64,000 bases of DNA, from positions 36,954,001-37,018,000 of the forward strand of contig NC_086097.1 in assembly GCF_963921235.1 (NCBI RefSeq). Direction: 5' to 3'. Each line of letters opens with the position of its first letter. The stretch's first letter is position 1. Source of the stretch: Mobula hypostoma (lineage: Eukaryota). The notes beneath the pieces were generated by a model, which was given only the letters and a program-made list of their open reading frames with translations, did not search any database and had not been told where the DNA came from. Below, in pieces: positions 1,357-61,845 of the stretch. A program made the position numbers and the translations under genes.

Positions 1357-1810
1357 AGCAACACACATCAAAGTTGCTGGTGAACGCAGCAGGCCAGGCA
1401 GCATCTCTAGGAAGAGGTACAGTTGACGTTTCGGGCCGAGACCCTTCGTCAGGACTAACTGAAAGAAGAGCTAGTAAGAGATTTGAAAGTTGGAGGGGGA
1501 GGGGGAGATCCAAAATGATAGGAGAAGACAGGAGGGGGAGGGATGGAGCCAAGAGCTGGACACCTGATGAGCAAAAGGGATATGAGAGGATCATGGGACA
1601 GGAGGCTTAGAGAGAAAGAAAAGGGGGAAGGGGGGAGAAAACCCCAGAGGATGGGCAAGGGGTATAGTGAAAGGGACAGAGGGATAAAAAGGAGAGAGAG
1701 AAAAAGAATGTGTGTATATAAATAAATAACGGATGGGGTACGAGGGGGAGGTAGGGCATTAGTGGAAGTTCAAGAAGTCAATGTTCATGCCATCAGGTTG
1801 GAGGCTAGAA
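1357..1810 (-). mobile_element. Penelope-like element 3' part (GIY-YIG C-terminus plus pseudo-LTR)
   Basis: Near-identical in reverse to 16217-16846 and 27297-27941; minus strand encodes SLQPDGMNIDF; contains hammerhead motif. Confidence 0.85.
1421..1457 (-). ncRNA. Minimal type I hammerhead ribozyme motif in Penelope pLTR
   Basis: Minus strand UAGUC-CUGACGA-AGGGUCUCGGCCC-GAAAC-GUC-AACU; catalytic core intact, first stem I pair mismatched. Confidence 0.7.
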
Positions 1811-1849
1811 AGATAGAATGTGAGGTCAGAAGTTACCTTATCGTACAAG

Positions 1850-2165
1850 AGGTTCATTGAAGAGTCTGATACAGTGGGGTAGAGGTTGTCCTTGAGCCTG
1901 GAGGATCATGCTTTCAGGCTTTTGCATCTTCTACCTGATAGGAGAGCGGAGAATATCTGGGGTGGATTGACTCTTTGATTATGCTGGCTACATTACTGAG
2001 GGAGTGAGAAGTGTAGGTAGGGTCCATGGAGAGGAGACTGGCTTCTGTGATGTGCTGAACTGTGTCCACAGCTGTCAGCAGTTCCTTGTGGTCATGTGCA
2101 GAGCAGTTGCTGTACCAAGCCATGATGCATTCAGTTGGGAAACTTTCTATGGTGCATCAAAAAAA
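1850..2165 (-). mobile_element. Rex1/Babar-like LINE C-terminal fragment
   Basis: ORF 1914-2123 AWYSNCSAHDHKELLTAVDTVQHIT...ASIIKESIHP is homologous to the C-terminus of the 48284-49353 RT ORF. Confidence 0.75.
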
Positions 2166-2600
2166 TCAGCATCCCATGTCACCACTGTGAACTGGAGGAC
2201 CCAGATCGATGGCCCATTGAGGAATCCTGTTGTTGCCAGACAACAGAGATCCCCACTGTCACATGTCTGGGTAGTAAACAACAGCAAAAGGAGAATGTGC
2301 AGGAAATACCTCAGCACTGTGGGGAACAGCACTGAGAGCATTTCTGAGCAGTGGCTCAGGTTGTTTGGGACCGGCACCTGAGGGGGCCTGGTTACTTGGT
2401 AGGCATCTATTGAGCAATTCTAGCTGAGTGGAATCCACTCCAATAGGATCTCTCCATACTCTTGCACACACCATAATGGAGCTCTTGGAGACTTTAGCTG
2501 ACTTTCCCCTCCATCTGGTCCACCCCACATCAGAACACCCTCGACCAACGACAGGCTGCAGAGTAGAAGGGCACTCCCACTAGAGGCGATAATGTCACAT

Positions 2601-2634
<34 letters not shown>

Positions 2635-2655
2635 CTCCCCCCCCCCCCACCCCCT
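2601..2655. repeat. (TC)n microsatellite followed by poly-C
   Basis: Directly visible. Confidence 0.95.
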
Positions 2656-5630: not shown

Positions 5631-6160
5631 CCACTTTATTAGGTACATCTGTACATCGGCTTGTTAACATAAACATCTAATCAGCCAATTGTGATGCAGC
5701 AACTCAGCCCATAAAAGCATGCAGACATGGTCAAGAGGTTCACTTGTTGTTCAGAACAGACATCAGACTGGGGGAAGAAATATGATCAAAGTGACTTTGA
5801 GCGTGGACTGATTGTTGGTGTCGGACAGAGTTGATTGAAGGTCTCAGAAACCGTTGATCTGGAAGTTTCACACAGAGCAGTCTCCAGGGTTGACAGAGAA
5901 TGGTGTGAAAAACAAAAAAAAACATCCAGAAAGCAGCAGTTCAATGGGCAAAAATGCCTTGTTATTGAGAGAGGTCAAAGGAGAATGGTCAGACTGGTTC
6001 AAGCTGACAGGAAGGTGACTGTAACTTAAATAGGCACATGTTACAACAGTGTGTGCAGAAGAGCATCTCTGAGTGCACAAGACATCGAACCTCGAAGTGG
6101 CTGGCTACAGTGGCGTGAGATCATGAACATACACCCAGTTGCCAGTTAAATATGTACAGG
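5631..6160 (+). mobile_element. Tc1-like DNA transposon deletion derivative (N-terminal HTH region of transposase)
   Basis: TIR-like ccactttattaggtac; peptide AVSRVDREWCEKQKKTSRKQQFNGQKCLVIERGQRRMVRLVQADRK; homologous to 62740-63233. Confidence 0.8.
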
Positions 6161-9584: not shown

Positions 9585-10970
9585 TTTCTTTCTTTTTAAA
9601 TCTTTTTATTGAGTAAGTATACAAAAAAGGTAAGCCATATAAACATTAATACAATGTTAAAGTATAATAAAATTCCAAAAGATAACAATACCAAAAAGAA
9701 AATACTACAAACAATGTAATTTAAGCATAAGAAACCAAGATAACATAATAGTATACTAGATTTTATATATATCAATGGAAAAAAAAGAAAAAAAAACCCC
9801 CCAAAAAAAACCCACCGTGCAACTAACTAAAAGCAAAGCAAAGCAATGGGCTAACTTGAAACCAAACAGAGTTAAACTTAAAATCACGTCCTCAATCCCG
9901 ACCTCCATTAAAACAGTGAAGAAAAAACAAGAAGGGTAAATATTACATTAAATGAAAATATCGAATAAAAGGTCCCCAAATCTGTTCAAATTTAAATGAA
10001 GAATCATAAAGGTTACTTCTAATTTTCTCCAGATTCAAACATAAAATCGTCTGAGAAAACCAAAAAAAGGTAGTTGGAGCATTAAGCTCTTTCCAATGTT
10101 GTAAGATACATCTTTTCGCCATTAAAGTAAGAAATGCAATCATTCTACGGGCTGAAGGGGAAAGATTACTAGAAATTTTAGGTAGTCCAAAGATAGCAGT
10201 AATAGGGTGAGGAGAGATATCTATATTTAATACCTTAGAAATAATATTGAAAATATCTCTCCAAAAAGTTTCCAAAGTAGGGCAAGACCAAAACATATGA
10301 GTTAAAGAGGCTATCTGCCCCGAACATCTATCACAGAAAGGATTAATATGCGAGTAAAAACGCGCTAACTTATCTTTGGACATATGTGCTCTATGAACCA
10401 CTTTAAATTGAATTAGGGAATGTTTAGCACAAATAGAGGAAGTATTAACTAATTGTAAAATCTGCCCCCAATCATCCACAGAAATGGTAAGCCCCAATTC
10501 CTGTTCCCAATCTACCCTAATCTTATCAAATGGAGCTTTCCTAAGTTTCATAATAATATTATAAATCATAGCCGATGCACCTTTCTGACATGGATTAAGG
10601 TTAATTATCGAATCTAAAATATATATAGGAGGAAGCATTGGAAAGGAAGAAAGTATAGTACTTAGGAAATTTCTAACTTGTAAATATCTAAAAAAATGTA
10701 TTCTTGATAAGTTATATTTATTAGATAATTGTTCAAAAGACATAAGGGAACCATCTAAAAATAAATCCAAAAACCGTAAAATACCCTTAGTCTTCCAAGT
10801 TTGAAAAGCGCGATCCGTAAAAGAGGGAGGAAAAAATATGTTACCTAAAATAGGAATCGCTAACCCGAATTGATTAAGATCAAAAAATTTTCTGAATTGA
10901 AACCAAATGCGCAAAGCATATTTAACTATCGGGTTAGAGACCTGCTTAAGGCGTTTCGAATCAAAAGGAA
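9585..10970 (-). mobile_element. Young 5'-truncated L1-clade LINE with 12-bp TSD
   Basis: Perfect TSD agatattccatc at 9573-9584 and 10971-10982; AATAAA then an (AAAG)-rich tail on the minus strand. Confidence 0.9.
9943..10970 (-). CDS. L1 ORF2 C-terminal fragment (Cys-rich zinc-knuckle region), open up to the truncation point
   Basis: 323-aa ORF extendable without stops to the 5' junction; FFRYLQVR, QFKVVHR and CDRC...HMFWSC motifs. Confidence 0.8.
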
Positions 10971-11034
10971 AGATATTCCATCAACAGCATGCAGATTTGT
11001 GTCTTGGGTTCATTTAAAATATCCTCATCACCAC

Positions 11035-14489: not shown

Positions 14490-14776
14490 CCTTTGTCGTT
14501 TGGTCCTAACTGTTTCATTTTCACTAAAGACACCCAATGCCTTTACACACCCATCCCCCACCAGGAAAGCCTGAAGGCCCTCAGCTTCACTCTTGGATGG
14601 AGGCCAATCCAGACTCCATCCATCAACCTCACCACCTGGCTAAACTTCCTTTTAATACTCAACAACTTCCCTTTTGATTCCTCGAAATGAAAGATGTTGC
14701 TATGACAACCCATATGGTGTCCTGGCTATACCTGCCTATTTGTGGGATACTTAAAATATTCTTTGTTCCAGTCCTA
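14490..14776 (+). pseudogene. Penelope-type reverse transcriptase fragment
   Basis: IFTKDTQCLYTPIPHQESLKAL...LILNNFPFDSS then KDVAMTTHM, corresponding to PLE RT motifs DVxSLYTSIP and GVAMG. Confidence 0.75.
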
Positions 14777-16216: not shown

Positions 16217-16846
16217 ACTGGGAGACCACTTTGCTGAACACCTACGCTCTGTCCGCCAGAGAAAGCAAGATCTCCCAGTGGCCACACATTTTAATTCCAC
16301 ATCCCATTCCCATTCTGACATGTCTATCCACGGCCTCCTCTACTGTAAAGATGAAGCCACACTCAGGTTGGAGGAACAACACCTTATATTCCGTCTGGGT
16401 AGCCTCCAACCTGATGGCATGAACATTGACTTCTCTAACTTCCGCTAATGCCCCACCACCCCCTCGTACCCCATCCGTTATTTATTTTTATACACATAAT
16501 CTTTCTCTCATTTCTCTCAGTCTCCTTTTGCTCCCTCTGTCCCTCTGACTATACCGCTTGCCCATCCTCTGGGTCCCCCCCACTTTGTCTTTCTCCCTGG
16601 GCCTCCTGTCCCATGATCCTCTCATATCCCTTTTGCCAATCACCCGTCCAGCTCTTGGCCCATCCCTCCCCCTCCTGTCTTCTCCTATCATTTTGGATCT
16701 CCCCCTCCCCCTCCCCCTCCCACATTCAAATCTCTTACTAACTCTTCTTCAGTTAGTCCTGACGAAGGGTCTCGGCTTAAAACATCTCTTCCTAGAGATG
16801 CTGCCTGGCCTGCTGCGTTCACCAGCAACTTTGATGTGTGTTGCTT
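16217..16846 (+). mobile_element. Penelope-like element 3' part (GIY-YIG plus pLTR, degenerate hammerhead)
   Basis: VATHFNSTSHSHSDMSIHGLLYC...LEEQHLIFRLGSLQPDGMNIDFSNF; CTGACGA at 16759-16765 with GAAA mutated. Confidence 0.85.
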
Positions 16847-17029
16847 AGATCATGTCAAATGGTTTTGGGATGGTCTGTGCATAATTAAGAGGGTAATTTA
16901 ATTACGCATGAAAAAAGGGAAGAAAATTTGTTCCTAAAATGGCCAAAGTTAACAATGTAAATGAGTACATTGAATAGTACATTGAATTCATTTGCAAGAT
17001 GCACTGACATCACTTTACTGAAGAGTATA

Positions 17030-20084: not shown

Positions 20085-20200
20085 AAAAAAACAACTGTTT
20101 ATTCCCCTCAGTGGATGCTGCCTGACCTGCTGAGTTCCTTTGGCATTCTGTGTGTGTTGCTGTGGATTCCCAGCAACTGCAGAAGCTCGTGTGTTTATGA
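20085..20200 (+). mobile_element. Penelope pLTR terminal fragment
   Basis: gatgctgcctgacctgctgagttcct...tgtgtgttgc...ccagcaactgcaga. Confidence 0.7.
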
Positions 20201-23104
20201 GTTTACACTGCTCTCCCTCTCACTTGTGAGAAACTTTCCCTACCAACCAACAACAAAAACATGGTTTCATGTGTTGCATTCCATGTGCTTAACCACCAAG
20301 CTGCATCAGAAGAAGTAATCAAACATTTGATACTAAAACCAAACTAAAAAAAAATTAGAACAAGTTAATCAATATCTCAATTTTAAATCAATTACCCTGA
20401 TTCACAAGTTTTACATCGCACACATATCTCTTCCTCTGCAATCTGCCCCAACTCTGCAATGTTCCCAGTTGCATTCCTACCATTCTGGTGTCTTGATTAC
20501 GTTCTGATCAAGAATAGTTATGGAGAGGTGGAACTAGAACTCACCAGTGTGCAAGCTGAGCCAGGGCTGTGGATGAAGTCATTGAAAGCAAGGGGCCAGG
20601 ATGGAGAATAAACCCTCAGGAGATTCCCTGAAGTACCATTGGTGGCAAGCAAGAGCCAAACTAATTTTGGTTTGTGAGCATCAACAAAGAGGCTCCACTT
20701 CCAAAATGCTGATTGTGCACGCAAAATACAGATTGTTGACATGTACGCAGGCACTGCAAATCATCATTGGAATGACGTCCTCTTTAAGAAAGGAGATGGT
20801 TCTCACTGCTGTATGAGCTCTCTATCACCCATTTACAATATTAATTTAATAGGAGTCCTACGATGGCACTGAACAGATATTCAAACAAAGCAGTCACACG
20901 TAATCGTGCATTTTCATGGGTGTCCAGCAAACAAATAAGACTTGCCAAACAATGCCCCCTTCATACCTTGTGCTTCTTGTAGCTTTCCAACCATATTAAA
21001 CCAGCATTAATTTGCATCAAATAACTTAAATTGAAATAAATCCTGATATTTGTTAGACTGGAATAGCCTTCATTTGGTGTCAGTGAGGTCAGTGTTCAAG
21101 TTGCAGTCTGTGGGAACTGTTTAGGTGCCTCTTTGTCTGGCCCGCTGTATAACTGGAGTAAGGTTTCACACACAGCCCGAGGGCAAGCAAAACAGCTGCA
21201 GGCAAACTGCAAAGTTCCTCCAATTACACTGTGGAAATGGTGACTTTCTGGTGAAAAACTCATTATTCATAAATACAGGGATTCTGCTGGTCATAAGCAC
21301 GGCTGATCACCAGGAACTTTTGTATTCCAAGCATCTCATCACATTCCCTGCCTTTTGGGGTGAACAATTAGCTATTTCATTCTTGTATTCCAGAAAAAAA
21401 AATACATTCCTTACAGAATTTACAATAGTGTATAATTAGAGTAACCGCCATTAAATTTGTTTTACATAACTGAGTTATTTCCATCACTGAAAAAGTATTA
21501 CTGCTAGACTGTCTAATCACCCAGGAAGGATGATCTTACGCAAACCTCTACTCACCAATCAGTTCAATGAGGAATAACTAATTAATCTGACTGGTCTTTT
21601 ATTTATTTCTCCCATTTCAGTTTCACACAGGAGATCATTCCCAGGCTCAGCCAACGTAGTAAATTGATGAAAGTTACCCAGGCTTTTTGTCAGTAAATTT
21701 TTTGTAACGAGCCTGTAAGAGAACATACAACAGCCTTAAGGAAAACAAGCTGGTACAGATTTTTTTTTGCACTTGGAGGAGTGCTTACTTTAATTTGGAT
21801 TTATGTAATAATTGAAAATTAGTCAATTACAACACTGAAACTAATTTCCAGGGTCATTTGTTTCATAAACTTTCTGAAAGAGAAATTTCAGCATGCTTTA
21901 GTCCCTATGCTGTCATTTTGAGACTTCTTGCATTCCACTCATCTGAAATATCAAGAAACATTTGGAGCTTATTCACAAACAGTTAGCAGCTCCCAGTAAA
22001 TACAATACTTGCTCCTTTCTCATAATTGCCTAATGTTCTGCCAGGAGATTTATCTAATTAAGTAATTTCAATTGAAATGAGCAAGGGATTAGTTTCATTT
22101 TACCATCAACAGGCATTTTTTTTCTCCATTTGGACTCAAAGAATAGAAAGCACATTGATTTTCAATGTTGAGTTTTGACCAGCAGTGGAGCTTTATACAA
22201 TATTGTAAGTCAACCGTGTGGACATTTAGATTATTGGTGACTGGATCAGGAAATTAAGCTCTTATGAAACATGCGAACAAGTTTGTGGAAATTGGAAAGC
22301 AGAAATGTCACCTGGTAAAGTGGTTAGCACATAAAAGGCAAAACCATTCAGGAGAGCTAAGGAAATAGTTACACAAATAAACAAAAGGAAAGAAGATTTA
22401 AGTGCACAAACAAATAACTAAGAACTATTAAATTGAGCAATGAAGGAATTTTTCCAAACATCAATGTTAAGACTGTTGCTAAATCTTTGATCAAACATCT
22501 TCAGTTTTCAAAAAGATAGAAATGGGTGCTCGTGTATGAAAATGCCTTCTGTAACGTATGAAAAAAACAAAGATTCTACTTGCGTCAGGAACTAATTAAA
22601 GATGAGCAGCCAAGGTCTGTGACCGGAATGCGAAGGGTATTCCAAGGAGTCGGAGGGGAGATGTCTGTATGATCCTGTTCGAGTTTGAGGGGAGTTTAGT
22701 GTGTGTAACCAGTAGTGTCCCGCTTAGGCTGAAAAACCATCCCAGCAATATGATGGAAATAATCCCCTTCCATTACAAATAATTCTAAAATGGAAGCGGC
22801 AGCTTTAAAAAATGGGCAGTGACTAATCTATCGGATTTGGATTATGTTTTATTCATAAATTCTGAATGAACTTTAAAGAAGCTATTGATGCCCTCACCAG
22901 AAGAGACTCTACTTTATTATAATAATACGTTAAATGGAAACCTTCATATACGTTCCAGAAATTCTTTCATCTTTGTTCTACCGTCAGGTGTTAAGAACTA
23001 TTTAAATCTATCTTCCTGCAAGCTTCAATGTTTTAAGTGAACCAACTTGAATATTTTTCTCTATTATAGTCACTCAGCTGAAATAGACACCACTGAAAAT
23101 ATTG

Positions 23105-23290
23105 AAACAGTCGGGCAGCATCGACAGAGAGGAATAAAGAGTCGAAGTTTCAGGCCGAGACCTTTCATCAAGACTGAAACATTGAGTCATTATTCCTCTC
23201 CATAGATGTTGCCCAAAATGCTGAGTTCCTCCAGCATTTTGTATGTGTTGCACTGGATTTCAAGCATCTGCAAGTTCTTTTGTGTTTATG
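23105..23290. mobile_element. Collapsed inverted Penelope pLTR pair
   Basis: gggcagcatcgacagagaggaataa ... ttattcctctccatagatgttgccc arms around a hammerhead remnant. Confidence 0.65.
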
Positions 23291-24280: not shown

Positions 24281-24316
24281 CAGTCAACATTTCGGGCTGA
24301 GACACTTCATCAGGAC
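24281..24316 (-). ncRNA. Isolated Penelope-derived hammerhead motif
   Basis: Minus strand GUC-CUGAUGA-AGUGUCUCAGCCC-GAAAU-GUU-GACUG. Confidence 0.5.
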
Positions 24317-24459
24317 ACCTGGTTGAAGATGAATGCAAATATTTCACCTTTCCTTTTATCATTGACATACTGTGCCCTGTTGTAGATAAAAATGGTGATG
24401 ATCATGGTGAACGCATTTCCTGTTAGTTATGTACAATAACACATAACAGAATGTGGTAA

Positions 24460-27296: not shown

Positions 27297-27941
27297 TTCT
27301 GTCCGCCTTTCTCTGTCCGCCAGAGAAAGCAGGATCTCCCAGTGGTCACTCGTTTTAATTCCACGTCCCATTCCCATTCTGATATGTCTATCCACGGCCT
27401 CCTCTACTGTCAAGATGAAGCCACACTCAGGTCGGAAGAACAACACCTTATATTCCGTCTGGGTAGCCTCCAACCTGATGGCATGAACATTGACTTCTCT
27501 AACTTCCGTTAATGCCCATCCTCCCCCTCGTACCCCATCCGTTATTTATATATATTTATATATTCTTTTTCTCTCTCTCCTTTTTCTCCCTCTGTCCCTC
27601 TCACTGTACTCCTTGCCCATCCTCTGGGCTTCACCCCTCCCCCTTTTCTTTCTCTCTAGGCCTCCTGTCCCATTATCCTCTCATATCCCTTTTGCCAATC
27701 AACTGTCCAGCTCTTGGCTCCATCCCTCCCCCTCCTGTCTTCTCCTATCATTTTGGATCTCCCTCTCCCCCTCCCACTTTCAAATCTCTTACTGGCTCTT
27801 CTTTCAGTTAGCCCTGACGAAGGGTCTCAGCCTGAAACGTCGACTGTACCTCTTCCTAGAGATGCTGCCTGGCCTGCTGCGTTCGCCAGCAACTTTTATG
27901 TGTGTTGCTTGAAATTCCAGCATCTGCAGATTTTCTCGTGT
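27297..27941 (+). mobile_element. Penelope-like element 3' part with 12-bp TSD
   Basis: GIY-YIG C-terminus plus full pLTR end; perfect TSD ttaggtttacct at 27285-27296 and 27942-27953. Confidence 0.9.
27809..27846 (+). ncRNA. Minimal type I hammerhead ribozyme motif
   Basis: UAGCC-CUGACGA-AGGGUCUCAGCCU-GAAAC-GUC|GACUG; core intact, predicted cleavage after 27841. Confidence 0.7.
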
Positions 27942-28056
27942 TTAGGTTTACCTCCTATCACCTTTCCACTGATTATTGTATGAAAATCTGTGTTCTACTT
28001 TAGGTGCCATCTTAAAAGTTTCTTAGGACATTAGGATCAATTTGAAAACAGAATAT

Positions 28057-29045
28057 AAACACAGGAGTTTCTGAAGATGCTGGAAATCCAGAACAACATA
28101 TACAAAATCCCAGAGGAACTCTGCAACATACAGAAAATGCTGGAAGAACTCAACAAGTCAAACAACATCTATGAAAATGAATAAACAGTTGATGTTTCAG
28201 GCCAAGACCTTTAATCAAGACTTGAAAGGAAGGGGAAGTAGCCAGAATAAGAAGGTGGAACAGTACAAGCTAGAAGGTGATAGGTGAGGCAGTGGGTTGG
28301 AGAAGAAGGAATCTGATAGGAGAGGAGAGTGAACCATGGGAGAACTCAGGGACTGGGACTATTTTTTTTTGCATGTGACTGTATTTTACCTCTGTCTTAT
28401 ATGTGCTGTGAATGACTGTTGGCCGATTTCCAGCATCTGCAGATATTCTCATGTTTGTAATGAGTGATGGCACTATGCTTTGTACCCTGGCCCCAGAATA
28501 ACTGTTTTGTTTGGCTGTATTCATGGGTTTTCATGTATGGTTAAATGACAATTAAACTTAAACTTGAACTTGAGAAAGGGAATGATGAGGGGAACCGGGG
28601 AAGGTGACTGACAGGTGGGGAGAAGAGGGGGGCCAGGGTGGAAAACTGAGAAAGAGGGAAGGGAACAGGGGGAAAATAACGGAAGTTGGAGAAATCGATG
28701 TTCATGCCATCAGGTTAGAGATCACAGAGATGGAATATGACATGTAGACCCTCCAACCTGAGAACGTCCTCAGTATGACAGAAGACGAGGCCATGGACCA
28801 ACAGGTCAGAATGGGAATGGGATTGGAATTCAAATGGTCGGCCACCTGGAAATTGTACTTTTTGCAGATGGAGCTCAACAAAGCGTTCCCCCAAATCTAT
28901 ACCGGGTTTCCCCAATGTAGAGGAGGTCGTATCGGGATGCTACAAGTCATGCAGCATCAATGGAGAGGAATAAATAGTCAACTCTTCGGGCTAAGATCCT
29001 TCATCGGGACAGACATGCTGAGCTCCTCCAGCATTCTGTGCTTGA
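28057..29045 (-). mobile_element. Older Penelope subfamily copy with nested insertions and terminal pLTR remnants
   Basis: pLTR, purine-rich linker and GIY-YIG segment (SHSHSDLLVHGLVFC in ORF 28715-28915). Confidence 0.75.
28355..28573 (+). mobile_element. Non-LTR retroposon 3' end with (AACTTG)n tail nested in Penelope
   Basis: gacaattaaacttaaacttgaacttga tail; Penelope sequence resumes on both sides. Confidence 0.6.
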
Positions 29046-43225: not shown

Positions 43226-43394
43226 TTATTATCACTGACTTAGATGATGTGAAATTTGTTGAAAATAGTTGATCTTCCACAAAGGGCCATGCAATATCAG
43301 TAATAAAGCAAAACTAGTACAGCAGTGTTACTGAGCATCATTGGTAACATCAATTTGTTTAAAATATTTAAAAAATTAACTTAAATCAAATCAT

Positions 43395-43623
43395 GCAACA
43401 CACATCAAAGTTGCTGGTGAACGCAGCAGGCCAGGCAGCATCTCTAGGAAGAGGTACAGTCGACATTTCAGGCCGAGACCCTTTGTCCCGACGAAGGGTC
43501 TCGGCCTGAAACGTCGACTGTACCTCTTCCTAGAGATGCTGCCTGGCCTGCTGCGTTCACCAGCAACTTTGATGTGTGTTACTTGAATTTCCAGCATCTG
43601 CAGAATTCCTCGTGTTTGCGGTT
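43395..43623. mobile_element. Palindromic (inverted pLTR) Penelope insertion with ~16-bp TSD
   Basis: Arms 43395-43487 and 43490-43582 (93 bp, 3 mismatches, 2-nt spacer) plus ~40-nt tail; flanking direct repeat ttaa(a/t)tcaaatcatgc at 43381-43396 and 43624-43639. Confidence 0.9.
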
Positions 43624-48060: not shown

Positions 48061-49353
48061 TAAGATTCAAGATTCAAGATTCAAAAACTTTATTGTCATT
48101 CTAACCGTACATCAGCTCTGCAGGGCAGAATGAGACAGCGTTCCTCAGGGGCAGTGCAATCATAACATAACAAACGCAAGACTAAATAATAAACTTAACA
48201 ATATATAGTAAAACACAATAGCCACATGTCAGTTAAAATCAGTTATAAGTGTCCAGTGCAAGTTAAAAGTGTCCAAAGCAGAGTCAGGTGGAGCAGCTAC
48301 TTAGGAGTCTGACTGCCTGTGGGAGGAAGCTGTTTAGTAGCCTTGTGGTTTTAGTTTTGATGCTCCTGTAACGTTTGCCTGATGGCAGAAGAACAAACAG
48401 TTCATGGAGAGGGTGTGAGGGGTCTTTAATGATGTACTGTGTCTTCTGGAGGCATCGACTCTGAAAGAGGTCTTGGACAGAAGGTAGGGAGACCCCAATA
48501 ACCTTCTCTGCTCCCCTAACCACCCTCTGCAAGGCTTTTTTGTCGACAGCACTGCAGCTGGAGTACCAGGTTGTGATGCAAAAGGTCAGCACACTCTCAA
48601 CCACGTCTCTGTAGAATGTAGTTAAGATGTTAGTGGGGAGTGATGCTTGTTTAAGCTTCCTCAGAAAGTGCGATCTCTGCTGGGCCCGTTTCACAATCCC
48701 AGTGGTGTTCCTGGACCAGATGAGATTGTCCAAGATCTGCACCCCAAGGAACTTGATGTTTTCCACTCTCTCCACTGTGGAGCCGCTGATGCTGAGGGGT
48801 GTGTGCTCAGGCTGAGACCGTCTGAAATCGACGATCATCTCCTTGGTTTTGGTGACATTAAGCATCAAGTTGTTACCCCTGCACCAGCTCTCTAGGTGTT
48901 TGACCTCCTCCCTGTACATTGTTTCATCATTTTTGCTGATGAGCCCCACCATTGTGGTATCGTCTGCAAATTTAATGATCAGATTCTCCTTGAATCTGGC
49001 TGCACAGTCATGTGTTAGCAGTGTAAACAGCAATGGGCTAAGCACACAGCCTTGTAGGGATCCAGTGCTCAGTGTGATGGAGTCAGAGATGTTCCTGCCA
49101 ACACGGACTGACTGTGGTCTCTCTGTCAAGAAATCCAGAATCCAGTGACACATGGCAGTGCTAAGGCCAAGCAGCGACAGTTTCTCCACTAGTCTCTGTG
49201 GGATGATGGTATTGAACGCTGAACTGAAATCAGTGTACAGGATTCTGGCATAAGTGTCTTTGTTGTCCAAGTGAGAGAGAACTGTGTGCAGTGTGGTGGA
49301 TATTGCCTCCTCCGTAGAGCGATTTGGACGATAAGCAAACTGTAGAGGATCTA
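48061..49353 (-). mobile_element. Young 5'-truncated Rex1/Babar LINE with (TTGAATC)n tail
   Basis: Tail aagattcaagattcaagattc; possible short TSD cactat at 48055-48060 and 49354-49359. Confidence 0.9.
48284..49353 (-). CDS. Rex1/Babar reverse transcriptase domain plus C-terminus, uninterrupted (5' truncated)
   Basis: [54 protein letters not shown] in one frame; the first ~16 aa of the ORF call come from flanking DNA. Confidence 0.85.
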
Positions 49354-49389
49354 CACTATAGTAAAATAAGCAGCAGTATAAAATGTGTA

Positions 49390-50870
49390 GAGCAACACAC
49401 ACAAAGTCCTGGAGGAAACAGCAGCTCAGGTAGCAACCATGGAAATGAATAAGCTGTTGATGTTTTGGGCCAAGACCCTTCTACAGGACTGAGAAGGAAG
49501 GGGGAAGATGCCAGAATAAAAATGTGGGGGGAGGAGAAGGAGAATAGCTAGAAGGTGATAGGTGAAGCCAGGTGGGTAGCAAAGGGGTAGAGAAAAAGGA
49601 ATCTGATTGGAGAAGACAGTTGACCATGGGAGAGAGGGAAGGAGAAGGTGACACAGGGGAAGGTGATAGGCAAGCAAGAAGAGGTAAGAGGCTAGAATGG
49701 GGAATAGACGAAGAGGGGAAAGGAAGGACTTTTTTTTTACCGGAAGCAGAAATTGATGCTCATGCCATCAGGTTGGAGGCTATTCAGATGGAATATGAGG
49801 TATTGCTCCTCCAGCCTGAGGGTGGCCTCATCTTGGTATAAGAGGAGTCCATGGATCAATATGTCGGAACTAGAATGGGAATCGGAATTAAAACGTTTGG
49901 CCTCCGGGATGTTCTGCTTTTGGTGGATGGAGTGGTGGTGCTCGATGAAGCGGACACCAGTTTACGATGGGTTACACCCAGATCAAGTCGGTGGTGAGGA
50001 AGGTAAATGCTATGTTAGCATTCATTTCAAGAAGTCTAGAATACAAGAGCAAGGATGTGATGCTGAGGCTTTATAAGGCATTGGTGAGGCCTCACCTTGA
50101 GTACTGTTTTGGGCTCCTCATCCTAGAAGAGACGTGCTGGCATTGGGGAGGGTCCAGAGGAGGTTCACAAGGATGATTCTGGGAATGAAAGGGTTATCAT
50201 ACAAGAAACGTTTGATGGCTCTGGGTCTGTACTTGCTGGAATTCAGAAGCATTGGGGGGGGGGATCTCATTGAAACCTTTCAAATGTTGAAAGCCTAGAC
50301 AGAGTAGATGTGGAAAGTATGTTTCCCATGGTGGGAGAGTCCAGGACAAGAGGGCACAGCCTCAGGATAGAGGGGTGCCCTTTCAAAACAGAGATACAGA
50401 TAAATTTCTTTAGCAAGAGGGTGGTGAATTTGTGGAATGTGTTGCCACATGCAGCTGTGGAGGCCAGGTCTTTGGGTGTATGTAGGGCAGAGACTGATAG
50501 GTTCTTGACTGGACATGGCATCAAAAGTTACGGGGAGAAGGCTGGGAACTGAGACTGAGGAGGAGAAAATGAAAGGATCAGCCATGATTGAATGGCGGAG
50601 CAGATCTGATGGGCCAGATGGCCTAATTCTGCTCCTATGTCTTATGGTCTTATGGTCTTATGTAGAAGAGGCTGCATCGGGAGCGCCGGACAGAATGGAC
50701 AACCCCAGCAGATTCGCAGGTGAAGTGTTGCTTCACCTGGAAGGACTGTTTGGGGCCCTGAATGGAGGTGAGTGAGCGAGTGTGGCGGTTCGGCTGTTGG
50801 CGGGGATATGTGCTGGGAGGGAAGTTGGTGGGTAGGGATGAATGGACAAGGGTGAGAATATGTGAAGGAG
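49390..50870 (-). mobile_element. Older Penelope copy interrupted by a CR1 insertion
   Basis: pLTR and GIY-YIG segment 49390-49970; the element resumes at ~50661 (tgtagaagaggctgcatcgggagc). Confidence 0.8.
49969..50660 (+). mobile_element. CR1 LINE 3' part
   Basis: LYKALVRPHLEYC, RTRGHSLRIEG...RVVNLWNVLP; (tcttatgg)n tail. Confidence 0.9.
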
Positions 50871-50944: not shown

Positions 50945-51600
50945 CATTCAGACAAGATGTACATGTGTGCTGGGTGGCTGCAGGATGCTAAGATGCCTAC
51001 CAGCCTGGGTGGGGTGGCGGGGGGAGCTGTTACTCAGTCTGACAGCTCTGATTCTTATGCTGAGGTACCTCCTGCCTGATGCCAGGAGGTCAAAGACATT
51101 GTTGGAGTGAGGTGAAGGCTCTTTGACAACACTCAGGGCACTGTTGCCACTTCCATGCAGGTATGGACTTGCACCCAAAGGTCTTTCTGTACAGGAATGC
51201 CCCCATTTGACCTCTCAAAATGTAATTCCTCATACCTGCCCTGATTAAACTTCATCTGCCGATTCTCTGCCCATATTTCCAATTAATCTATATCTTCCCG
51301 ATTCCATTGATAAGCATTGCCAACATCCACAACACTAGCAATGTCGACTCAACTGGCAAAACCGTTCTACTACTACCCTTGCATCTTGCCACCTATATGC
51401 TGTGGATCCAATTTACCACTCTCCCTTGAATCCCACAGATTTTTACCAGTTTTGACTACCCTCCTAAGTTAATCTAGACTCCATGAAATGAACTGCTGTA
51501 ATCAATCCTTCATGATACTTCCTAAAAAAAAAATCAACGATTAATCTGACAGGACCTTACCTTAACAAATCCATGCTGACTCTGCCTTTGCAAATGAAGC
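50945..51600 (-). mobile_element. Old Rex1-like and CR1 fragments
   Basis: LLASGRRYLSIRIR (Rex1-like) followed by degenerate CR1 RT sequence. Confidence 0.5.
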
Positions 51601-53644
51601 TTCAATAGTTCTCTAGTTCTAGTCTCACCTACCAATGGAAACAACTTTCCTAATTCTATCTTATCTATCCCTTTCAAAATTTTGTATGTTTCTATAAGAT
51701 CCCCTCTCATTCATCTGAACTCCAGAGAGTATAGCCCAGGCAACTCAATCTCTCCTCATAGGTTAACCCCTTCATCCCAGGGATCAACCTGGTGAATCTC
51801 TTCTTCACTGCCTCCAAAGCCATTATATCCTTCCTCAGGTATGGAGACCTGAACTGCACACAGTACTCCAGGTGCGGCCTCACCAGTACCCTGTATCATT
51901 GCAGCATGACCTCACCGCTCTTGAATTCAATCCCTCTAGTAATGAAGGCCAACATTCCGTTTGCCTTCTTAATAACCTGTTGTACCTGCAAGCCATCTTG
52001 TTTCAATTCATGAACAAGCACTCCCAAGTCCCTCTGCACAACAGCATGCTGCAATCTTTCACCATTTAAATAATAATGTGCTCTTCTATTATTCCTTCCA
52101 AAGTGGATGATCTCGCAATTACCAATGTTGTATTCATCTGTCAGAACTCGGCCCACTCACTTAATCTATCTATATCCCTCTGCAGACTCTCCATATCCTC
52201 TGTACAATTTGCTTTTCCACTCAGTTTAGTGTCATCAGCAAATTTTCCTATGCTACATTCAGTCCCCTCTTCCAAATCATCAATGTAAATGGTGAACAGC
52301 TGCAGGCCCAGCACTGACCCCTGCGACACCCCACTCACCACTGACTGTCAACCGGAGAAACACCCATTTATACCAGCTGTCTGCCTTCTATCGGTTAACC
52401 AATCCACTATTCATGCCAATACACTTCCTCCGACTCCATGCATCTGAATCTTATTTATAAGTCTCTTGTGCAGCACCTTATCAAACGCCCACTGGAAATC
52501 CAAGTATACGACATCCACCTGTTCCCCTCTATCCACCGCACTCATTATGTCCTCAAAGAACTCCAGTAAGTTTGTCAAACAGGACCTGCCCTTTCTGAAT
52601 CTATGCTGCGTCTGTCAAATGGAACCACTCCTTTCTAAATTTTTAATGACAGCTTCAAGCATTTTCCCGACTACAGATGTTAAGCTAACTGGCCTATAGT
52701 CGCCCGCCTTTTGCCTACATCCTTTTTTAAAAAGTGGTGTGGCATTTGTTGTCTTCCAATCCGCTGGGAATTGCCCAGAGTCTAGAGAGTTTTGATAAGT
52801 GATTACCAACTCGTCTATTTTAACCTCTGCCAATTCCCTCAGCACCCTGGGATGCATCCCATTAGAACCAGGGGACTTATCTACTTTCAGGCCCTCTAGT
52901 TTGCTCATCACTATCTCTTTAGTGACAGTGATTTTATCGAGGTCCTCACCTCCCATTTCATCCATAACATCCTTCTTTGGCATATTAAACGTGTCCTCCA
53001 CTGTGAAGACTGACACAAAATAGTCTTTCAAAGCCTCAGCCATTTCTTATCACCAAATATCAATCTCATCTTCTCATCTTCCAACGGACCTACGTTGACT
53101 TTAGCCATCCTCTTCTGCTTTAAAAACTTTATAAAAACTTTTGCTATCTGTTTTTATATTTTGTGCTAATTTACTTTCATACTCATTCTTCTCTTTCCTT
53201 ATTTCTTGTTTAGTTGTTCACTGTTGCTTTTTAAAGATTTCCCAATCCTCCAGTCTCCCACTACTCTTTGCGACTTTGTACACGAGCTTTTAATTTGATA
53301 CTATCTTTTATTTCCTTAGTTATCCAAGGCTGGCTCTCCCCACACTTACTTTCCTTACTTTGACTGGAATATACTTCTGTTGAGCACCGTGAAAAACCTC
53401 TTTGAAAGTATTCCACTGTCCTCAACTGTCCTATCAAATAGCCTGTGCTCCTAATCAACATTAGCCAACTCCTCCCTCATCCCATTGTCGTCTCCCTTGT
53501 TCAAGCATAATACACTAGCTTTAGATCTAACTATTTCATCCTACATCTGAATGCGAAATTCAATCATACTATGATCACTCTTTCCAAGAGGATCCCTGAC
53601 TACAAGATTGTTAATCTTACCTGTCTCATTTCACAGGACTAGAT

Positions 53645-54328
53645 CTAAGATAGTATTTTCCCTTGTAGGTTCACTAACATGCTGCTCAAGAAATGGATGC
53701 ATTCTATGAAGTCCTCCTCAAGTCTTCCTTGACCAACCTGATTCACCCAATCTATGTGGAAGTTAAAATTCCCCATGACAACTGCCGTTCTGCTCTTACA
53801 AACCTCAGTTATTTCTTGGTTAATCACCTCTGCCACTGCAATATTTTTATTAGGTGGCCTATAGACAACACCCACCAGTGATTTCTTCCCTTTACTATTC
53901 TTAACCTCTACCCAGATGGACTCAACATTCTGCTCTGTAGATCTTATATCGTCTCTCCCAATGGCCCTGATCTCATCCTTAATCAAGAGCGCCGCCCCAC
54001 CTCCTCTGCCTTCCTGCCCATCTTTCCGTATTACCTGATACCCTTGGATATTTAATTCCCAGTCATCTCCACCTTGCAACCAGGTTTCTGTAATGGCCAC
54101 TAAATCATATGCTTTGGTACTGATCTGTGCCACAACTTCACTAACCTTGTCTCTAACATGGCGGGCATTTAGATAAAGCGCCCTTATACTCATTGTCCTT
54201 TTAGAATCTAGTGACCTGTGCAATTTTTGCTTTTTACTTTTATGCACTCTACTCTTACTTTTTTCTTCACTAACTCTAGCTTTGGTCTCTGCCATCACTT
54301 CCCCCTTCTTTTCTGTGTGGGTTCCCAT
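53645..54328 (-). pseudogene. CR1 ORF2 AP-like (EEP) endonuclease domain
   Basis: LYLNAR, AITETWL, VYRPP, GNFN (GDFN mutated); frameshift downstream. Confidence 0.85.
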
Positions 54329-54340
54329 CCCCCTGCCGTA

Positions 54341-54975
54341 TTAGTTTAAAGCTTCCCCAACAGCACTAGCAAACAATCTCCCTAGGACATTGATCCCGGC
54401 CCTGCCCAGATGTAAACCGTCCAGATGGTACTGGTCCCACCTGCCCCAGAAGCAGCTCCAATGCCCCAAGAATCTGAAACCCTCCCTCCTGCACCACTGT
54501 TCAAGCCATATATTCATTCTAGCTGTGCTGCTATTCCAACTCTGGCTAGCACATGGCACCAGTAATAATCCTGAAATGATTACCTTTGAGGTCCTATTCT
54601 TTAATTTATCTCCTAGCTCCCTAAATTCAGCCTGTAGGACCTCATCCCGCTTTCTTCCTCTATCGTTAGTACCTACGTGCACCACGACAACTGGCTGCTC
54701 ATCTTCCCCTTTCAGAATGCCCTGCAGCCTCTCTGAGACATCTCTGACCCTTGCACCCGGGAGGCAACACACCATATGGGAGTCCCATTTGCAGCCACAG
54801 AAGCTCCTCTCTATTCCCTTTACCATGGAATCCCCTACCACAACAGCTCCACCACTCTTTTTCTTGCCCTCATGCACAGCAGAGCCACCCATGGTGCCAT
54901 GATCCTGGCTACTGCTGCCTTCACCTGATGGGCCATCTCCCCCAACAGACTCCAAAGCGGTATATCCAGAGCATT
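54341..54975 (-). CDS. CR1 ORF1 SGNH/GDSL esterase-like domain (5' truncated, open)
   Basis: VVVGDSMV, CLPGARV, VHVGTND and DGLHL motifs in one frame. Confidence 0.8.
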
Positions 54976-55477
54976 TGTTGTTGGCGTGGTCACAATGGCT
55001 GTCCACGGAGGAGAGCATTAGGGAAGACTAGTTGCGCTCTTCCCTCCCTTCCCCTTGCTCTTCCTTTCCCTTCTCTTTCTCTGATGTTTTTTTCCCTGTG
55101 ATTCTGCTGCAATAGTTGAGCCCTCAATAGATTGAGTCTGAGCAGTTTATAGTAAGACTGCAAAAATCATAATGCCCTTTCTGTGAACGTACATTGTATG
55201 AGCATGCCAAAACTCCTCTAATATTATCTTTCTCGTTCTCGCTGACAGACTGCACTTGGAAGAGAATGCTTCCTGCTGCTCCTTTGTCTGGGGGTGACAG
55301 GTTTGTGCAGAACTTTGAAACCAAGTCAAATTCCTTACACATCTGGCTCAGCACTCCCTGCAGGGTTGAGCAACTTTAAAGGACTCTGGAGAGTAACAAT
55401 ACATTGAGCTACTGCAGGACAGCCAGTAGGAGAGAATCAGCAACCAACCTGATTTATAATAAAAGCAATAAATATGA

Positions 55478-56085
55478 TAAAGATGCTGGAAATCCAAAGC
55501 AACACTTAGAAAATGCTGGAGGAACTCAGCAGGTCAGGAAGCATCTGTGGAAAACAGCCGACATTTCGGGCCGAGAGCCTTCTTCAGGACTAAAAAAGAA
55601 CAGGTGAAAGTGGGGGGGGGGGGAGGTAAGAGGCTAGTTGGAAGGTGATAGGTGAAGCCAGGTGGGTGGGAAAGGTCAAGGGCTGGAGAAGAAAGAATCT
55701 GATAGGAGAGGAGAGTGGACAACAGGAGAAAGGGAAGGAGAAGGGACCCAGGAAGAAGTAATAGGCAGGTGAGAAGAAGTAAAAGGTCAGAGTGGGGAAT
55801 AGAGGGAGGGGTGGGCAGGGTATATTTGTTCACCAAAAGGAGAAATTGATATTCATGCCATCTGGTTGGAGGCTACCCAGATGGAATACAAGGTCTTGCT
55901 TCTCCACCCTGAGGGTGGCCTCACCTTGGCACAAGAGGAGGCCACAGATCAACACGTCAGAACAGGAATGGGAATCAGAATTTAAATGTTTGGCCACCAG
56001 GAAGTCACACTTGTGGCAGTTTGTACAGAGGTGCTTGACGAAGGGTCCCCCCAATTTACAACAAGTGTCACCAATGTAGAGGAGA
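55478..56085 (-). mobile_element. Penelope-like element 3' part with GIY-YIG fragment
   Basis: ORF 55830-56123 LLYIGDT...VAKHLNSDSH...LGSLQPDGMNINF. Confidence 0.85.
55555..55592 (-). ncRNA. Minimal type I hammerhead motif
   Basis: UAGUC-CUGAAGA-AGGCUCUCGGCCC-GAAAU-GUC|GGCUG; stem I pairs with G-U wobbles. Confidence 0.6.
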
Positions 56086-57995: not shown

Positions 57996-58117
57996 AACAT
58001 AGGAACACCTGGAGAATATTAGATTTCTTTGCATATACAAATAGGGCAATAGATATTTGTTTTATATACACCTTACAAAATTAGTTTGTCCTAAAGGTAG
58101 CAATGAGGTGCCTTTAA

Positions 58118-58410
58118 ATCATCATCATCATTATGTGCTATTTTGTATGACATAGGTGATTGTGTCTATATCCATGATTGTCCTTTGGAAATACCGCAGA
58201 AGTGGTTTGCCATTGCCTTCTTCTGGGCAGTGTCTTTACAAGACAGTGACTCCCGTCATCCTCAGGGATTGTCTGCCTGGCCTCAGTGGTTGGATAATCA
58301 GTATGTGATATGCACCATCTGCTCATACAACCATTCACCATGGCTTCACATGACTCTGATCAGTTGGGGGGGGGTGATAAGCAGGCGATACACCTTGCCC
58401 AAGGGTGACT
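58118..58410 (-). mobile_element. SINE with RTE/BovB-type tail and (GAT)n end
   Basis: Minus strand gaaggcaatggcaaaccacttctg (RTE/Sauria-SINE-type tail motif) and a terminal gatgatgatgat. Confidence 0.55.
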
Positions 58411-58608
58411 CTCTAGCTCTTCTGCTGATTGCTTCGCCATACTACAAAGAAAGCTACCCATAGATCGGTGGTGTACGAATTCAAATGCCTTTTATCCACA
58501 AGCATTTAGGGAAATTCCAGCAGCTTTCTGCAGCTCACTAGACTGATGCAAATATTAGGCAAGGCTCGAGTCTTTCATAGGCTGGTATTGAACGAGGCTT
58601 GACTCTAA

Positions 58609-58741
58609 ACAAGAGAAAATCTGCAGATGCTGGAAATCCGAGCCACACACACAGAATACTGGAGGAACTCAGCAGGCCAGGCAGCATCTAGGAAAAATGT
58701 ACAGTCGACGTTTTGGGCCGAAACCCTTCGGCAGGACTGAA
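58609..58741 (-). mobile_element. 133-bp Penelope pLTR-only insertion with 11-bp TSD
   Basis: Perfect TSD cttgactctaa at 58598-58608 and 58742-58752; degenerate hammerhead at 58702-58739. Confidence 0.85.
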
Positions 58742-61356
58742 CTTGACTCTAACTTAGGCTGCTACTGGGGAAGGCTTGAATCTACCTCTAGCCAGCATGG
58801 GAGTTCTTCAAAGCCTGTCCTGCAAACAATAGATGATTCTTCATACAGTTTGCTAAGATGCAAACAACAATCCCATTAAGGAAATAGTTTTCTCATTGTG
58901 AACAGACCTTCCGTTTGCCAAATATTATTCATCACCTCTCTGCACTCTGATTGAAGCAGAAGTGAACAGAGCTTTGGCTTTAGAATCTGCTGTTCTTATT
59001 TTTGTGTGCTGTGGACAGGTTTGTCAGTGATGCCACTGCCGGGTTATGTGGGAGAGTGACAGTTGGAATCTGACTTGCTTCATTCCACATGCAGCGGATC
59101 ATGCATGTGGCTTCCACAATTGGAAACAGTAATAAATGGTGCAATGAGTCACTGTCTTCCTGGAAAACATTACCTTAGCAACCTAAACCCATGTGACTTA
59201 AAAAGAGGCCAATTTGTCAGTTGATATCCAGCCTCAGAATCTGGACTAATAAAGCAGTCAAGCACCAACTCCCTTGAAATTATATTTGGATCTAAATAAA
59301 TTTCTATAAAAGCAAGAATTTATGTTTTTCATGATTTTTTAAAAGATATTTATACAATTCACTGCACTTGAAGACCACTGACAAAAAATAATGCAAATAA
59401 TGGCCTGAAAAGTGGAGGATTTGAAGATCACCACATGACACAAGTGCCAGGAATGATTCAAAAATAATCCAGTGAATGATATAAAAATTGATACAGTTTG
59501 ATGCGGTTAATCATTTTTTTTCAGGAGAAATGTTACTTTTAATCAACAAACTGAAATGTATGTCTAAATTGTTGATATAGGTTCTGTCTGCTGCAATACA
59601 AGCAAAACTTGCTTTCAAAATATTTGCTCCTCCTTTAACTACTGGAGAAAATAAGACAGGCAGGCACCCAACTTCTAGACCCCAGCAATGCCATTTTGAA
59701 ACCAGGCACTAATATGAGATCTGTAAAGCTATTCTGAATTAGCAGCTTGCTTACTTTCTTGTGTTACAGAGCTATAATGCAAACCCAAACCAGATGGATG
59801 ACTAATAGAGGACATTTCTGGATTAGATTGTTACAATCCAAATAATTACAAACACATTGATGCATGAGGCAAAAATATTCCACCGTGTAGGTACATCTTA
59901 CAATGATTGAAGGTGACCTCTTTTATTAAGACTACTTAAAGGAACAGTAAGGGGTATGTTTTAACTCTGTTCATTAATTTTTTTTTAGAAACTAGTGTTC
60001 TGCACTTCACATGGAAATTAGCACCCAGGAGGTGGATATGAACTGAATGAGGTGATTAGAACATTATTCCTTTCACTACAAGGCGATATTTTATCACATT
60101 CCTGTCAGACCTTCAATCACAGTCTTGGTACAAAATAATAACTTAATAAAACACAATGCACATTTAGAATGAAAATTAAGCAAAATAAACAAAATATATA
60201 GGTGTATATTATATATAAATTATATAAATAATTATATGTATATTGTATATATAATATAAATGTTATATATAAAATGTTTAAAGTATCGAAAGCATTTGGA
60301 CTTTGCAATTCGTTTAGATGATCCCAGCCAACAGGAATATAAAAGACTATTAGAAATAAGAGTAGTTCATTCAGTCAATTGTGCCTGCACTGCCATTCAG
60401 TGAGACTACAGTAGGGCTAATGCAATCTTTTACCCCAGTTCCACATTCCTGCACTAACCCCATATCCTTTGACTCCCGTAATGCTCACCAACTGTATCAG
60501 AACTGCAAACTGACAGAAATTACCTGACAGAAAACCAATAGAAACTAAGAATTCAGTTGAGTTTATTAAACTGTTATGCCATCTGATTGAGAACGCTTCC
60601 ATGCATCTTTCATAAAGTGAACAACTCCTGCCTTCTAATAAAGTGCACGAAATACAGAAATATGCTCATCTAATAGGAATCACCACCGCTGAAAAGCTAA
60701 GATTACTGATACGTTGCTTCCTTCCTCTGTGTGGCATTGAACCAAAAATAAACCACAAAATGCATGCATACTGGATTAATCCATAGGAACCACAATATCA
60801 ACATATGGGGAATGAAAAGAGAACGTCTTTCAAGGAGTTGGTGCTTCGCTGTGCAAGAATATATTTTAAGTGATATGAAAGTGCTCTGCTATGATTCAGG
60901 AGACTAACCCTGCCCTCTCATTACATGATCCCTATTGTGTAGCTACTTAGCTCTGTTTATTAGCTCCAGTTATATTTTCAAACAAGTTTCCATTACTAAC
61001 ATGCAAGGCTATACATCTCACTGAAAAGCAAAATGATATCTTGCCGGATCTTCTATTTCATTTCCTGCTCATTGAACTTCAACGGTTTCTAAACCAATCC
61101 AAATCAGCAATGCTGTGCTCCTGAGAAGTAAATAAATCCACAGTATCTTTGGGACCGGAGCCACGATATATTGCGTGAATACATTCTGAAAATAAACAAC
61201 CAATTGATGTCTTTCTCTTGTAGAATGTGTCACAATCCTATCAAAGAAAACTGTCATTTGAATGTTTGTCACTGAGTGCATTTGTAAAATTTTTCACAAT
61301 CAGTGAAAGGTAATTTATTGGGTCAATCCATTAAATAATGTTTGTATTCAATTATA

Positions 61357-61845
61357 ATCACAGAAGCATGTTGATCCATGGCCTCCTCTTGAACCAAGAT
61401 GAGGCCATACTCAGGGTGGAGGAGCAACACTTTATATTCCATCTGGGTTGCCTCCAACCTGGTGGTATGAATATTGATTTCTCATTCCGGTAAAATAATT
61501 CTCTCCCCCTCCCCTCTTCTTCTATGCCCCACTCTGGCCTTTTACCTCTTCTCACCTCCCTATCACTACTCCCTGGGCACCCTCCTCCTTCCCTTTCTCC
61601 TATGGTCCACTCTCCTCTCCTATCAGGTTCCTTCTTCTCCAGCCCTTGACCTTTTCCACCCAACTGGTTTCACCCATCACCTTCCAGTCAGCCTCCTTCC
61701 CCTACCCCTACCTTTTTATTCTGACATCTTTCCCCTTCCTTCTCAGTCCTGAAGAAGGGTCTCGGCCCAAAACGTTGACAGTTTATTCATTTCCACAGAT
61801 GCTGCCTGACCTGCTGAGTTCCCCCACCATTTTGTGTGTGAAGCA
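61357..61845 (+). mobile_element. Older Penelope 3' part (GIY-YIG end plus pLTR)
   Basis: VEEQHFIFHLGCLQPGGMNIDF; CTGAAGA...cccaaaacgttgac hammerhead remnant at 61745-61780. Confidence 0.85.

Follow-up and report, generated by a model that had tools for sequence, protein, structure and literature searches.

A 64,000-nt stretch of the Mobula hypostoma genome (RefSeq assembly GCF_963921235.1, contig NC_086097.1, positions 36,954,001 to 37,018,000), analysed as a whole and referred to here as the window, carries copies of a minimal type I hammerhead ribozyme (min-HHR) motif associated with 3' ends of Penelope-like retrotransposons, together with a host exon on the minus strand and remnants of other repeats. 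The motif was searched for with a profile built from nine natural copies in the window. Thirteen strong matches were obtained, scoring 27.0-53.2 bits; nine of them are the seeds, which match by construction, and the four non-seeds scored 27.0-35.0 bits. The eight other matches were weak, each at or below 6.9 bits, and the best scores in ten dinucleotide shuffles of the window were 3.9-10.1 bits. An earlier, sequence-only reading of this DNA had placed the motif at eleven positions, all of which were found to hold it on the strand given; two copies were added to its list, 28976-29011 (-) and the partial inverted arm 43458-43487 (-). The cut position that it had proposed for the copy at 27810 agrees with the site predicted here. 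The features are collected in Table 1.

Table 1. Features of the window, numbered from its first nucleotide (min-HHR, minimal hammerhead ribozyme; UTR, untranslated region).
Feature	Position	Strand	Description
5'-truncated Penelope-like 3' end	1357..1826	-	last GIY-YIG codons, pyrimidine-rich UTR, min-HHR, tail
min-HHR, subfamily A	1421..1456	-	core and stem II whole; first stem I pair broken (C-A, CpG-type)
decayed Penelope-type reverse-transcriptase fragment	14529..14771	+	49% to P0004, E 4e-14; no hammerhead attached
5'-truncated Penelope-like 3' end, subfamily A	16218..16855	+	76 GIY-YIG C-terminal codons, 93% to P0001
min-HHR	16755..16790	+	G12 changed, stem II weakened, cut site and stem I 3' arm deleted
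tail-only fragment	20088..20202	+	homology begins within ~4 nt of predicted cut site
host exon	21556..21712	-	AG acceptor, GTGAGT donor; seen spliced in X1 and X2 contigs
min-HHR, short arm	23140..23175	-	C3 changed, palindrome broken; 5' edge joined to inverted tail 23177-23288 (+)
min-HHR, short arm	24282..24317	-	core whole, stem II middle pair broken (U-C), GUU site
5'-truncated Penelope-like 3' end, subfamily A	27311..27945	+	GIY-YIG C-terminus 27312-27509, UTR, min-HHR, tail
min-HHR	27810..27845	+	core whole; stem I second pair broken (C-A); G10.1-U11.1; predicted cut 27841/27842
old Penelope-like 3' end	28056..28946	-	GIY-YIG motif remnant, internal insertion
min-HHR	28187..28222	-	C3, G8 changed
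min-HHR, short arm	28976..29011	-	U4, A15.1 changed; joined to inverted tail 29012-29046 (+)
fold-back unit	43388..43618	.	two inverted arms of hammerhead plus tail, joined at hammerhead 5' edge, 3-nt overlap
partial min-HHR arm	43458..43487	-	5' half of core missing
min-HHR	43485..43519	+	U4 changed, G10.1-U11.1; substrate half whole
old Penelope-like 3' end	49391..49958	-	open reading frame resumes at 50659-50853 beyond another repeat
min-HHR	49455..49490	-	A6, G12 changed
old Penelope-like 3' end	55475..56084	-	GIY-YIG motif remnant
min-HHR	55556..55591	-	core whole; third stem II pair broken (C-C); AUGU replaces palindrome
min-HHR, short arm 58605-58743	58703..58738	-	A6, G12 changed; substrate half whole
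old Penelope-like 3' end	61350..61860	+	matches ray Penelope proteins
min-HHR	61745..61780	+	G12 changed, GUU site

In its majority form the motif consists of a stem I of 4-5 bp, the core CUGANGA, an extra A that is present in 13/13 copies as had been claimed, stem II, GAAA and then CGUC. Stem II has three G-C pairs in the majority, and a further U-G pair closes its loop in 13/13 copies. The pair 10.1-11.1 is G-C in seven copies, G-U in four and A-U in two. The majority letter of every core column is that of the catalytic core. All 11 scored core bases were kept in the four copies previously described as having an intact core; in each of the remaining nine, between one and three core bases are altered. 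The description holds for the core bases; each of the four nevertheless has a broken stem pair, and the core, the first three pairs of stem I and the first three of stem II were found together in 0/13 copies. When the motif is divided into an enzyme half (stem I 5' arm, core, stem II and GAAAC) and a substrate half (GUC and the 3' arm), the 1421 copy is the only one with a whole enzyme half. Stem III, described as the palindrome ACGU, has this form in the alignment majority and in 5/13 copies, but reads AUGU in 3/13, including two of the supposedly intact copies; variants other than ACGU differ mostly by CpG-type changes. The named stem pairs formed in 85.2% of 108 cells compared with 15.7-46.3% when the partners were slid.

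This anatomy agrees with the minimal type I, dimer-type architecture that had been assigned to the motif. Minimal hammerheads in metazoan Penelope pseudo-long terminal repeats (pseudo-LTRs) have been described with the consensus CUGANGAH-G...C-GAAAN-palindrome-NUH and a U-rich 5' flank (Cervera and de la Pena 2014, PMC4209133). By that description the two have in common the type I topology without a stem III loop, the palindromic 15.2-16.2, the unpaired base between 9 and 10.1, G10.1-C11.1, the short stem I and the U-rich 5' flank, as well as the occurrence mostly as single motifs on truncated elements, with inverted pairs on opposite strands. The Crassostrea gigas motif shown there has the same GUC/GAC stem I and GGG..CCC stem II start, whereas stem II has 7-8 pairs in Schistosoma compared with three pairs and U-G here. 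Cartilaginous fish were absent from the rows examined of the supplementary table of that paper. Small Penelope hammerhead variants with a palindromic, extremely short stem III cleave as dimers, as cited in PMC6765202; the likeness to these variants of Lunse, Weinberg and Breaker is the palindromic, extremely short stem III, compared by description only.

A metagenome scan in which only the core, the extra A, G10.1-C11.1 and CGUC were fixed gave at least 122 loci. At least three stem I pairs were present in 45 of the 90 distinct matches listed, compared with 11.2 +/- 2.7 (maximum 20) in 1000 shuffles, and all four Watson-Crick pair types occur in stem I among these matches. The count is not independent because many matches come from one family. 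Ten of the 122 loci listed match ray Penelope proteins. None of the 122 loci listed matches the window by blastn, and they are thus no members of the window's family. The scan shows the same architecture beside Penelope open reading frames (ORFs) in other organisms.

In 7/13 cases the motif stands about 300 nt behind the last codons of a GIY-YIG ORF, across a pyrimidine-rich stretch, and in the long copies it is followed by a tail of up to ~100 nt; these C-terminal remnants support the Penelope origin that had been assumed. Twelve of 55 candidate proteins matched the 78-residue remnant at 16212-16445; the best, a predicted M. hypostoma protein, did so at 93% and Hypanus sabinus proteins at 76-89%. 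Ray Penelope proteins have matches in front of each of the seven long copies, as well as at 50659-50853 and 14529-14771. Relatives of the ORF, among them P0001-P0004, carry a YIDD reverse-transcriptase (RT) motif, a Cys linker and a GIY-YIG domain. The Pfam GIY-YIG matches of the proteins P0001-P0005 had E-values of 0.0005-0.002, below the cut-off, and that of the M. hypostoma protein, 4.6e-4, was likewise below it. Judged from the single ORF of these relatives, with RT and C-terminal GIY-YIG, the layout of the carrier is that of an endonuclease-bearing Penelope-like element; no single copy in the window holds both domains. The linker reads CX4CX2C in P0001 and P0002 and is decayed in the window at 50659-50853. 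A motif CX2-5CxxC between RT and endonuclease has been described as the linker of the Neptune clade (PMC8557442), and the Cys linker points to Neptune as the probable clade of the carrier. Self-comparison of the window showed motif copies that are dispersed only, with no direct tandem and with three inverted junctions; there are seven tandem arrays in the window, none of which holds the motif.

Two subfamilies were recovered, as had been proposed. A younger clade of five copies (support 100/97) is marked by C at position 7, the letter of subfamily A, and its long copies are 91-92% identical. The remaining eight, an older and unresolved set, carry U, A or C there, and their long copies are 73-84% identical. 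The two groups are 72-79% identical to each other, and a one-sided C-G/U-G difference at the fifth stem I pair tracks subfamily. The exception is the copy at 58703, which has C7, yet groups with the older set. C3-to-U and A-U at 10.1-11.1 are shared by 23140-23175 and 28187-28222 (-), possibly a third old subfamily. In subfamily A (1421, 27810, 43485), C7 allows the core to pair with the cut-site strand through five pairs in a predicted inactive hairpin, and the six bases around the cut are self-complementary, favouring an out-of-register dimer.

The decay of the copies is driven by CpG changes and fits neutrality. In twelve copies, a small sample from which the partial arm was omitted, changes were scored against the majority. 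CpG positions were changed in 27/93 cases, 25 of them of the deamination type, compared with 19/308 at other sites (p 3e-8), in line with the CpG-type damage that had been suspected. Non-CpG core positions were changed in 8/119 cases and non-core positions in 11/189 (p 0.81), and an equal rate in core and non-core is what neutral decay gives. Contigs of four of six presumed-RNA runs were aligned to 21000-30900 at 85% likeness. Among the differences listed, T is the family letter at 27812, with >99% of the depth (68-110 contigs per run), and G is the family letter for core position 8 in the copy at 28187. The stem I mismatch of the 27810 copy stems from the change at 27812, where T restores the pairing. 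Since the contigs read the family letter, both defects are private. The family is extremely abundant in these contigs, with a summed depth of ~1e5 or more in the bin 27620-27950.

Six motifs stand on short arms whose starts fall within -8..+2 of C3, with no start between about -370 and -16. These edges (23175, 24317, 29011, 43485, 43487 and 58738) coincide with the 5' edge of stem I. Five of 12 independent events fall in this 11-nt stretch (p 3e-6 under uniform truncation, a crude null), and three of the edges are junctions with an inverted tail. In the long copies a pyrimidine tract and CAG, resembling a 3' splice site, stand directly before stem I. The unit at 43388-43618 is a near-perfect hairpin of ~200 nt (-189.5 kcal/mol, z -26) that would bury both of its motifs. 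Inverted 5'-truncated copies and tails are described as known Penelope features (PMC8557442). Similar head-to-head motif pairs were seen at the metagenome loci L002, L055 and L057. The fold-back at 43388-43618 also gives a spurious microRNA-precursor match; the Rfam matches mir-3926 and mir-9256 were rejected, as they lie below the gathering score and arise from hairpin-shaped repeats. Only one candidate for a tail-only fragment starting at the cut site was found in the window, with a start uncertain by ~4 nt, the others beginning at ~+33 to +61 or in variable sequence. This single uncertain case, 20088-20202, is no evidence of cutting. An inverted pair of tail-only fragments without a ribozyme motif lies at 36300-36411.

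Transcription of part of the region is indicated by contigs of two of the four presumed-RNA runs compared, X1 and X2, which belong to one study. They hold a 156-nt piece, 21556-21711, without mismatch, that continues at both ends in sequence unlike the window. On the minus strand 21556-21712 is bounded by a pyrimidine tract and AG and by GTGAGT. Because the contigs diverge at both ends and splice signals flank the piece, it was identified as a spliced exon. Unique sequence at 21000-21447 and 26682-26930 is likewise covered by X1 contigs, again with no mismatch. One frame of the exon is open for 50 codons, with a stop 3 nt before the donor, and had no match among three candidates; the three phmmer hits to the exon were rejected, two being tandem-repeat proteins and the third reaching 31% over 34 aa. 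Pfam analysis of those 294 of the 608 stop-to-stop ORFs that reach at least 60 aa gave retroelement domains and some weak matches only, and no host-gene domain. With no convincing protein match, the exon possibly belongs to a UTR or a long non-coding RNA. Since it is spliced on the minus strand, part of the window is probably intronic on that strand, and the 27810 copy (+) is antisense to it. Nine of the 13 motifs lie on the strand of the exon (8/11 without the palindrome 43388-43618, p 0.23), and the sense copies show no sign of purging.

Related systems were also compared. One of them is PAc, a Poseidon element of Anolis carolinensis (Frangieh et al. 2024, PMC11167929). Both are vertebrate GIY-YIG Penelope elements with the motif at the pseudo-LTR and a tail behind it as the start of reverse transcription. 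PAc belongs to the Penelope/Poseidon clade and is described as forming tandem copies with an ORF that starts inside stem II, whereas only truncated ends occur here and the relatives carry a Neptune-type Cys linker. According to the same paper, the Anolis motif requires the element's protein for cutting and is unneeded for insertion in vitro, reverse transcription starts in the tail behind it, and no RNA sequencing reads ended at the motif's site. The Schistosoma monomer is reported to show no cleavage in vitro, and dimers to cut weakly (PMC4209133). Animal non-LTR retrozymes are likewise type I hammerheads of Penelope pseudo-LTR descent, but are described as head-to-tail tandem arrays with one motif per unit (10.64898/2026.07.22.740005); there is no such array in the window.

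The thirteen copies are very probably relics of the 3' termini of a very abundant GIY-YIG Penelope-like retrotransposon, lone and decayed; cutting of host RNA by them to any appreciable extent is unlikely. The sequence-only reading had suggested that intact copies could cut host pre-mRNA. The results do not support this, as no copy is whole, distances of 23 kb and 31 kb separate the core-intact copies on the same strand, the core is unprotected from mutation, covariation in the window is at shuffle level and the copy proposed for testing, 27810, is antisense to the sole spliced transcript seen. The window copies are probably inert relics. In an active tandem element, as the literature suggests, two motifs would pair through ACGU into a double hammerhead, which, helped by the element's protein, would cut the multi-unit transcript after GUC. 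Reverse transcription would start in the tail behind the motif and usually stop early. Because it starts in the tail, every insertion, however short, would carry tail and motif. The motif would be deposited as part of a long 3' fragment or of a short arm, often with an inverted tail, and a copy inserted alone, without a partner, would then decay.

Several points weigh against this interpretation. No full-length or tandem element was found within the window, and neither the pseudo-LTR arrangement nor an active parent was seen there. For this reason the term pseudo-LTR applies by homology only; the earlier assignment to Penelope pseudo-LTRs is correct as to Penelope 3' ends, but the copies are 5'-truncated and are not paired pseudo-LTRs. 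The test of core protection is small (12 copies). Covariation among the 13 copies, which are few and decayed, did not exceed that of shuffles (200-453 of 500 were as high), and two-sided change was found in one pair only, for which 453 of 500 shuffles were as high. The fold consequently rests on family resemblance and not on the window alignment. Moreover, a spliced minus-strand transcript with 9/13 motifs on the same strand would offer an opportunity to cut.

The possibility was considered that the hammerhead likeness arose by chance in a repeat terminus containing CUGANGA and GAAA. The Rfam check that had been proposed gave no match to a hammerhead family (six matches at E<=1 on the window, none of them hammerhead, and no hammerhead match for two stretches of 101 nt searched at E<=10). 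Nor did covariation in the window rise above shuffles. ViennaRNA preferred other folds for monomers and dimers, the target folds lying far above the predicted minimum energy. However, an equally large gap was found in 25 well-paired natural min-HHRs from other organisms; the gap is not discriminating, and folding energies were dropped as evidence. Whole folds of hammerhead plus tail were not better than shuffles in the five copies analysed (z -0.24 to 0.41). Accident is close to negligible as an explanation, since 11 core bases, spacing, stems, extra base, G10.1-C11.1 and palindrome fit the published consensus (PMC4209133) at the place expected in a Penelope element. An explanation that is unlikely, though less so, is that the motif is kept in the parent for a role other than cutting, for instance to signal a 5' boundary or to provide a structure to which RT binds, or is a mere passenger of the pseudo-LTR. 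As a boundary it might mark a transcript start or a 3' splice site directly before stem I, and the short arms might be a non-autonomous family whose members start at this boundary. The clustering of arm starts next to C3 in 6/13 cases and the pyrimidine tract with CAG before stem I are consistent with such a role. In Drosophila virilis Penelope an intron is reported to end at the 5' end of helix I (PMC4209133), ribozyme mutants are reported to be without effect on insertion in vitro (PMC11167929), and Naiad elements are described as spreading without the motif (PMC8557442). However, the 5' edge is in three places an inversion junction, a known by-product (PMC8557442). Furthermore, both subfamilies have the catalytic core as their family state, with 3' regions that share only 72-79% identity, and this core recurs, together with compensating stems, in unrelated animals; selection for catalysis would be expected to give such a pattern. 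Cutting with protein and successful C3/G8 rescue are also reported for the motif of Anolis (PMC11167929).

It is also conceivable that damaged copies complement one another, the enzyme half of one acting with the substrate half of another, so that host pre-mRNA with good substrate halves would be cut in cis or in trans by enzyme halves of the many other transcribed copies, with the help of a Penelope protein. Of 169 ordered pairs, seven passed a base-pairing audit; the enzyme half was in each case the 1421 copy, and five of the pairs lie on the strand of the spliced exon. The abundance of the family in the presumed-RNA contigs and the lack of depletion of minus-strand copies agree with complementation, and a preprint describes tandem retrozymes as depleted from Xenopus introns, suggesting that active ones matter (10.64898/2026.07.22.740005). 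Against this, the passing pairs are 23-57 kb apart and would be joined only by a 4-bp palindrome and 4-5 bp of stem I, while even designed tandem dimers are reported to cut weakly (PMC4209133). In addition, the core decays at the background rate, both arms at 43388-43618 would be buried in a 200-nt hairpin, and no RNA ends are reported at the site in Anolis (PMC11167929). Complementation of this kind is very improbable. Equally far-fetched is a network of trans-acting half-hammerheads in a genome saturated with the family, whose copies are individually broken but divide cleanly into the two halves. In such a network rare whole enzyme halves (the 1421 copy, or Penelope transcripts with protein) would cut intronic substrate halves and the 3' products would seed tail-only insertions like 20088-20202. 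Under that proposal the abrupt start of the short arms at stem I would reflect processing there, yielding a small mobile half-ribozyme RNA. Trans-cleavage of host pre-mRNA, if true, would turn a retrotransposon relic into a genome-wide RNA-processing signal.

Read as inert relics of Penelope 3' termini, the window copies contribute an example from a cartilaginous fish to the record of a motif found across many groups of animals. The kind of motif has been described since 2014, and what is new here is the host lineage. A literature search, with most subscription journals outside its coverage, found no report of the motif in cartilaginous fish; Penelope-derived retrozymes are reported in one chondrichthyan genome (10.64898/2026.07.22.740005). 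A genome rich in copies is well suited to the question of the ribozyme's function in Penelope replication, raised by the work on these elements (PMC8557442, PMC11167929), but the decayed copies of the window do not advance it.

Other repeats were observed in the window. Remnants of long interspersed nuclear elements (LINEs) lie at 9943-10980 (-), with an L1-type zf-RVT tail, at 48284-49480 (-), with a 398-codon open reverse-transcriptase frame directly behind the Penelope end at 49391, and at 51600-55030 (-), where a CR1-like remnant holds an esterase ORF1, an endonuclease and a broken RT. A tRNA-like head (below the Rfam cut-off) at 40235-40306 (+) belongs to a repeat resembling a short interspersed nuclear element, with five copies in the window. 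The hairpin at 62737-62803 terminates a repeat that is also present at 5645-6142 and may be a DNA-transposon terminus; a weak helix-turn-helix match was found near it, at 62966-63241.

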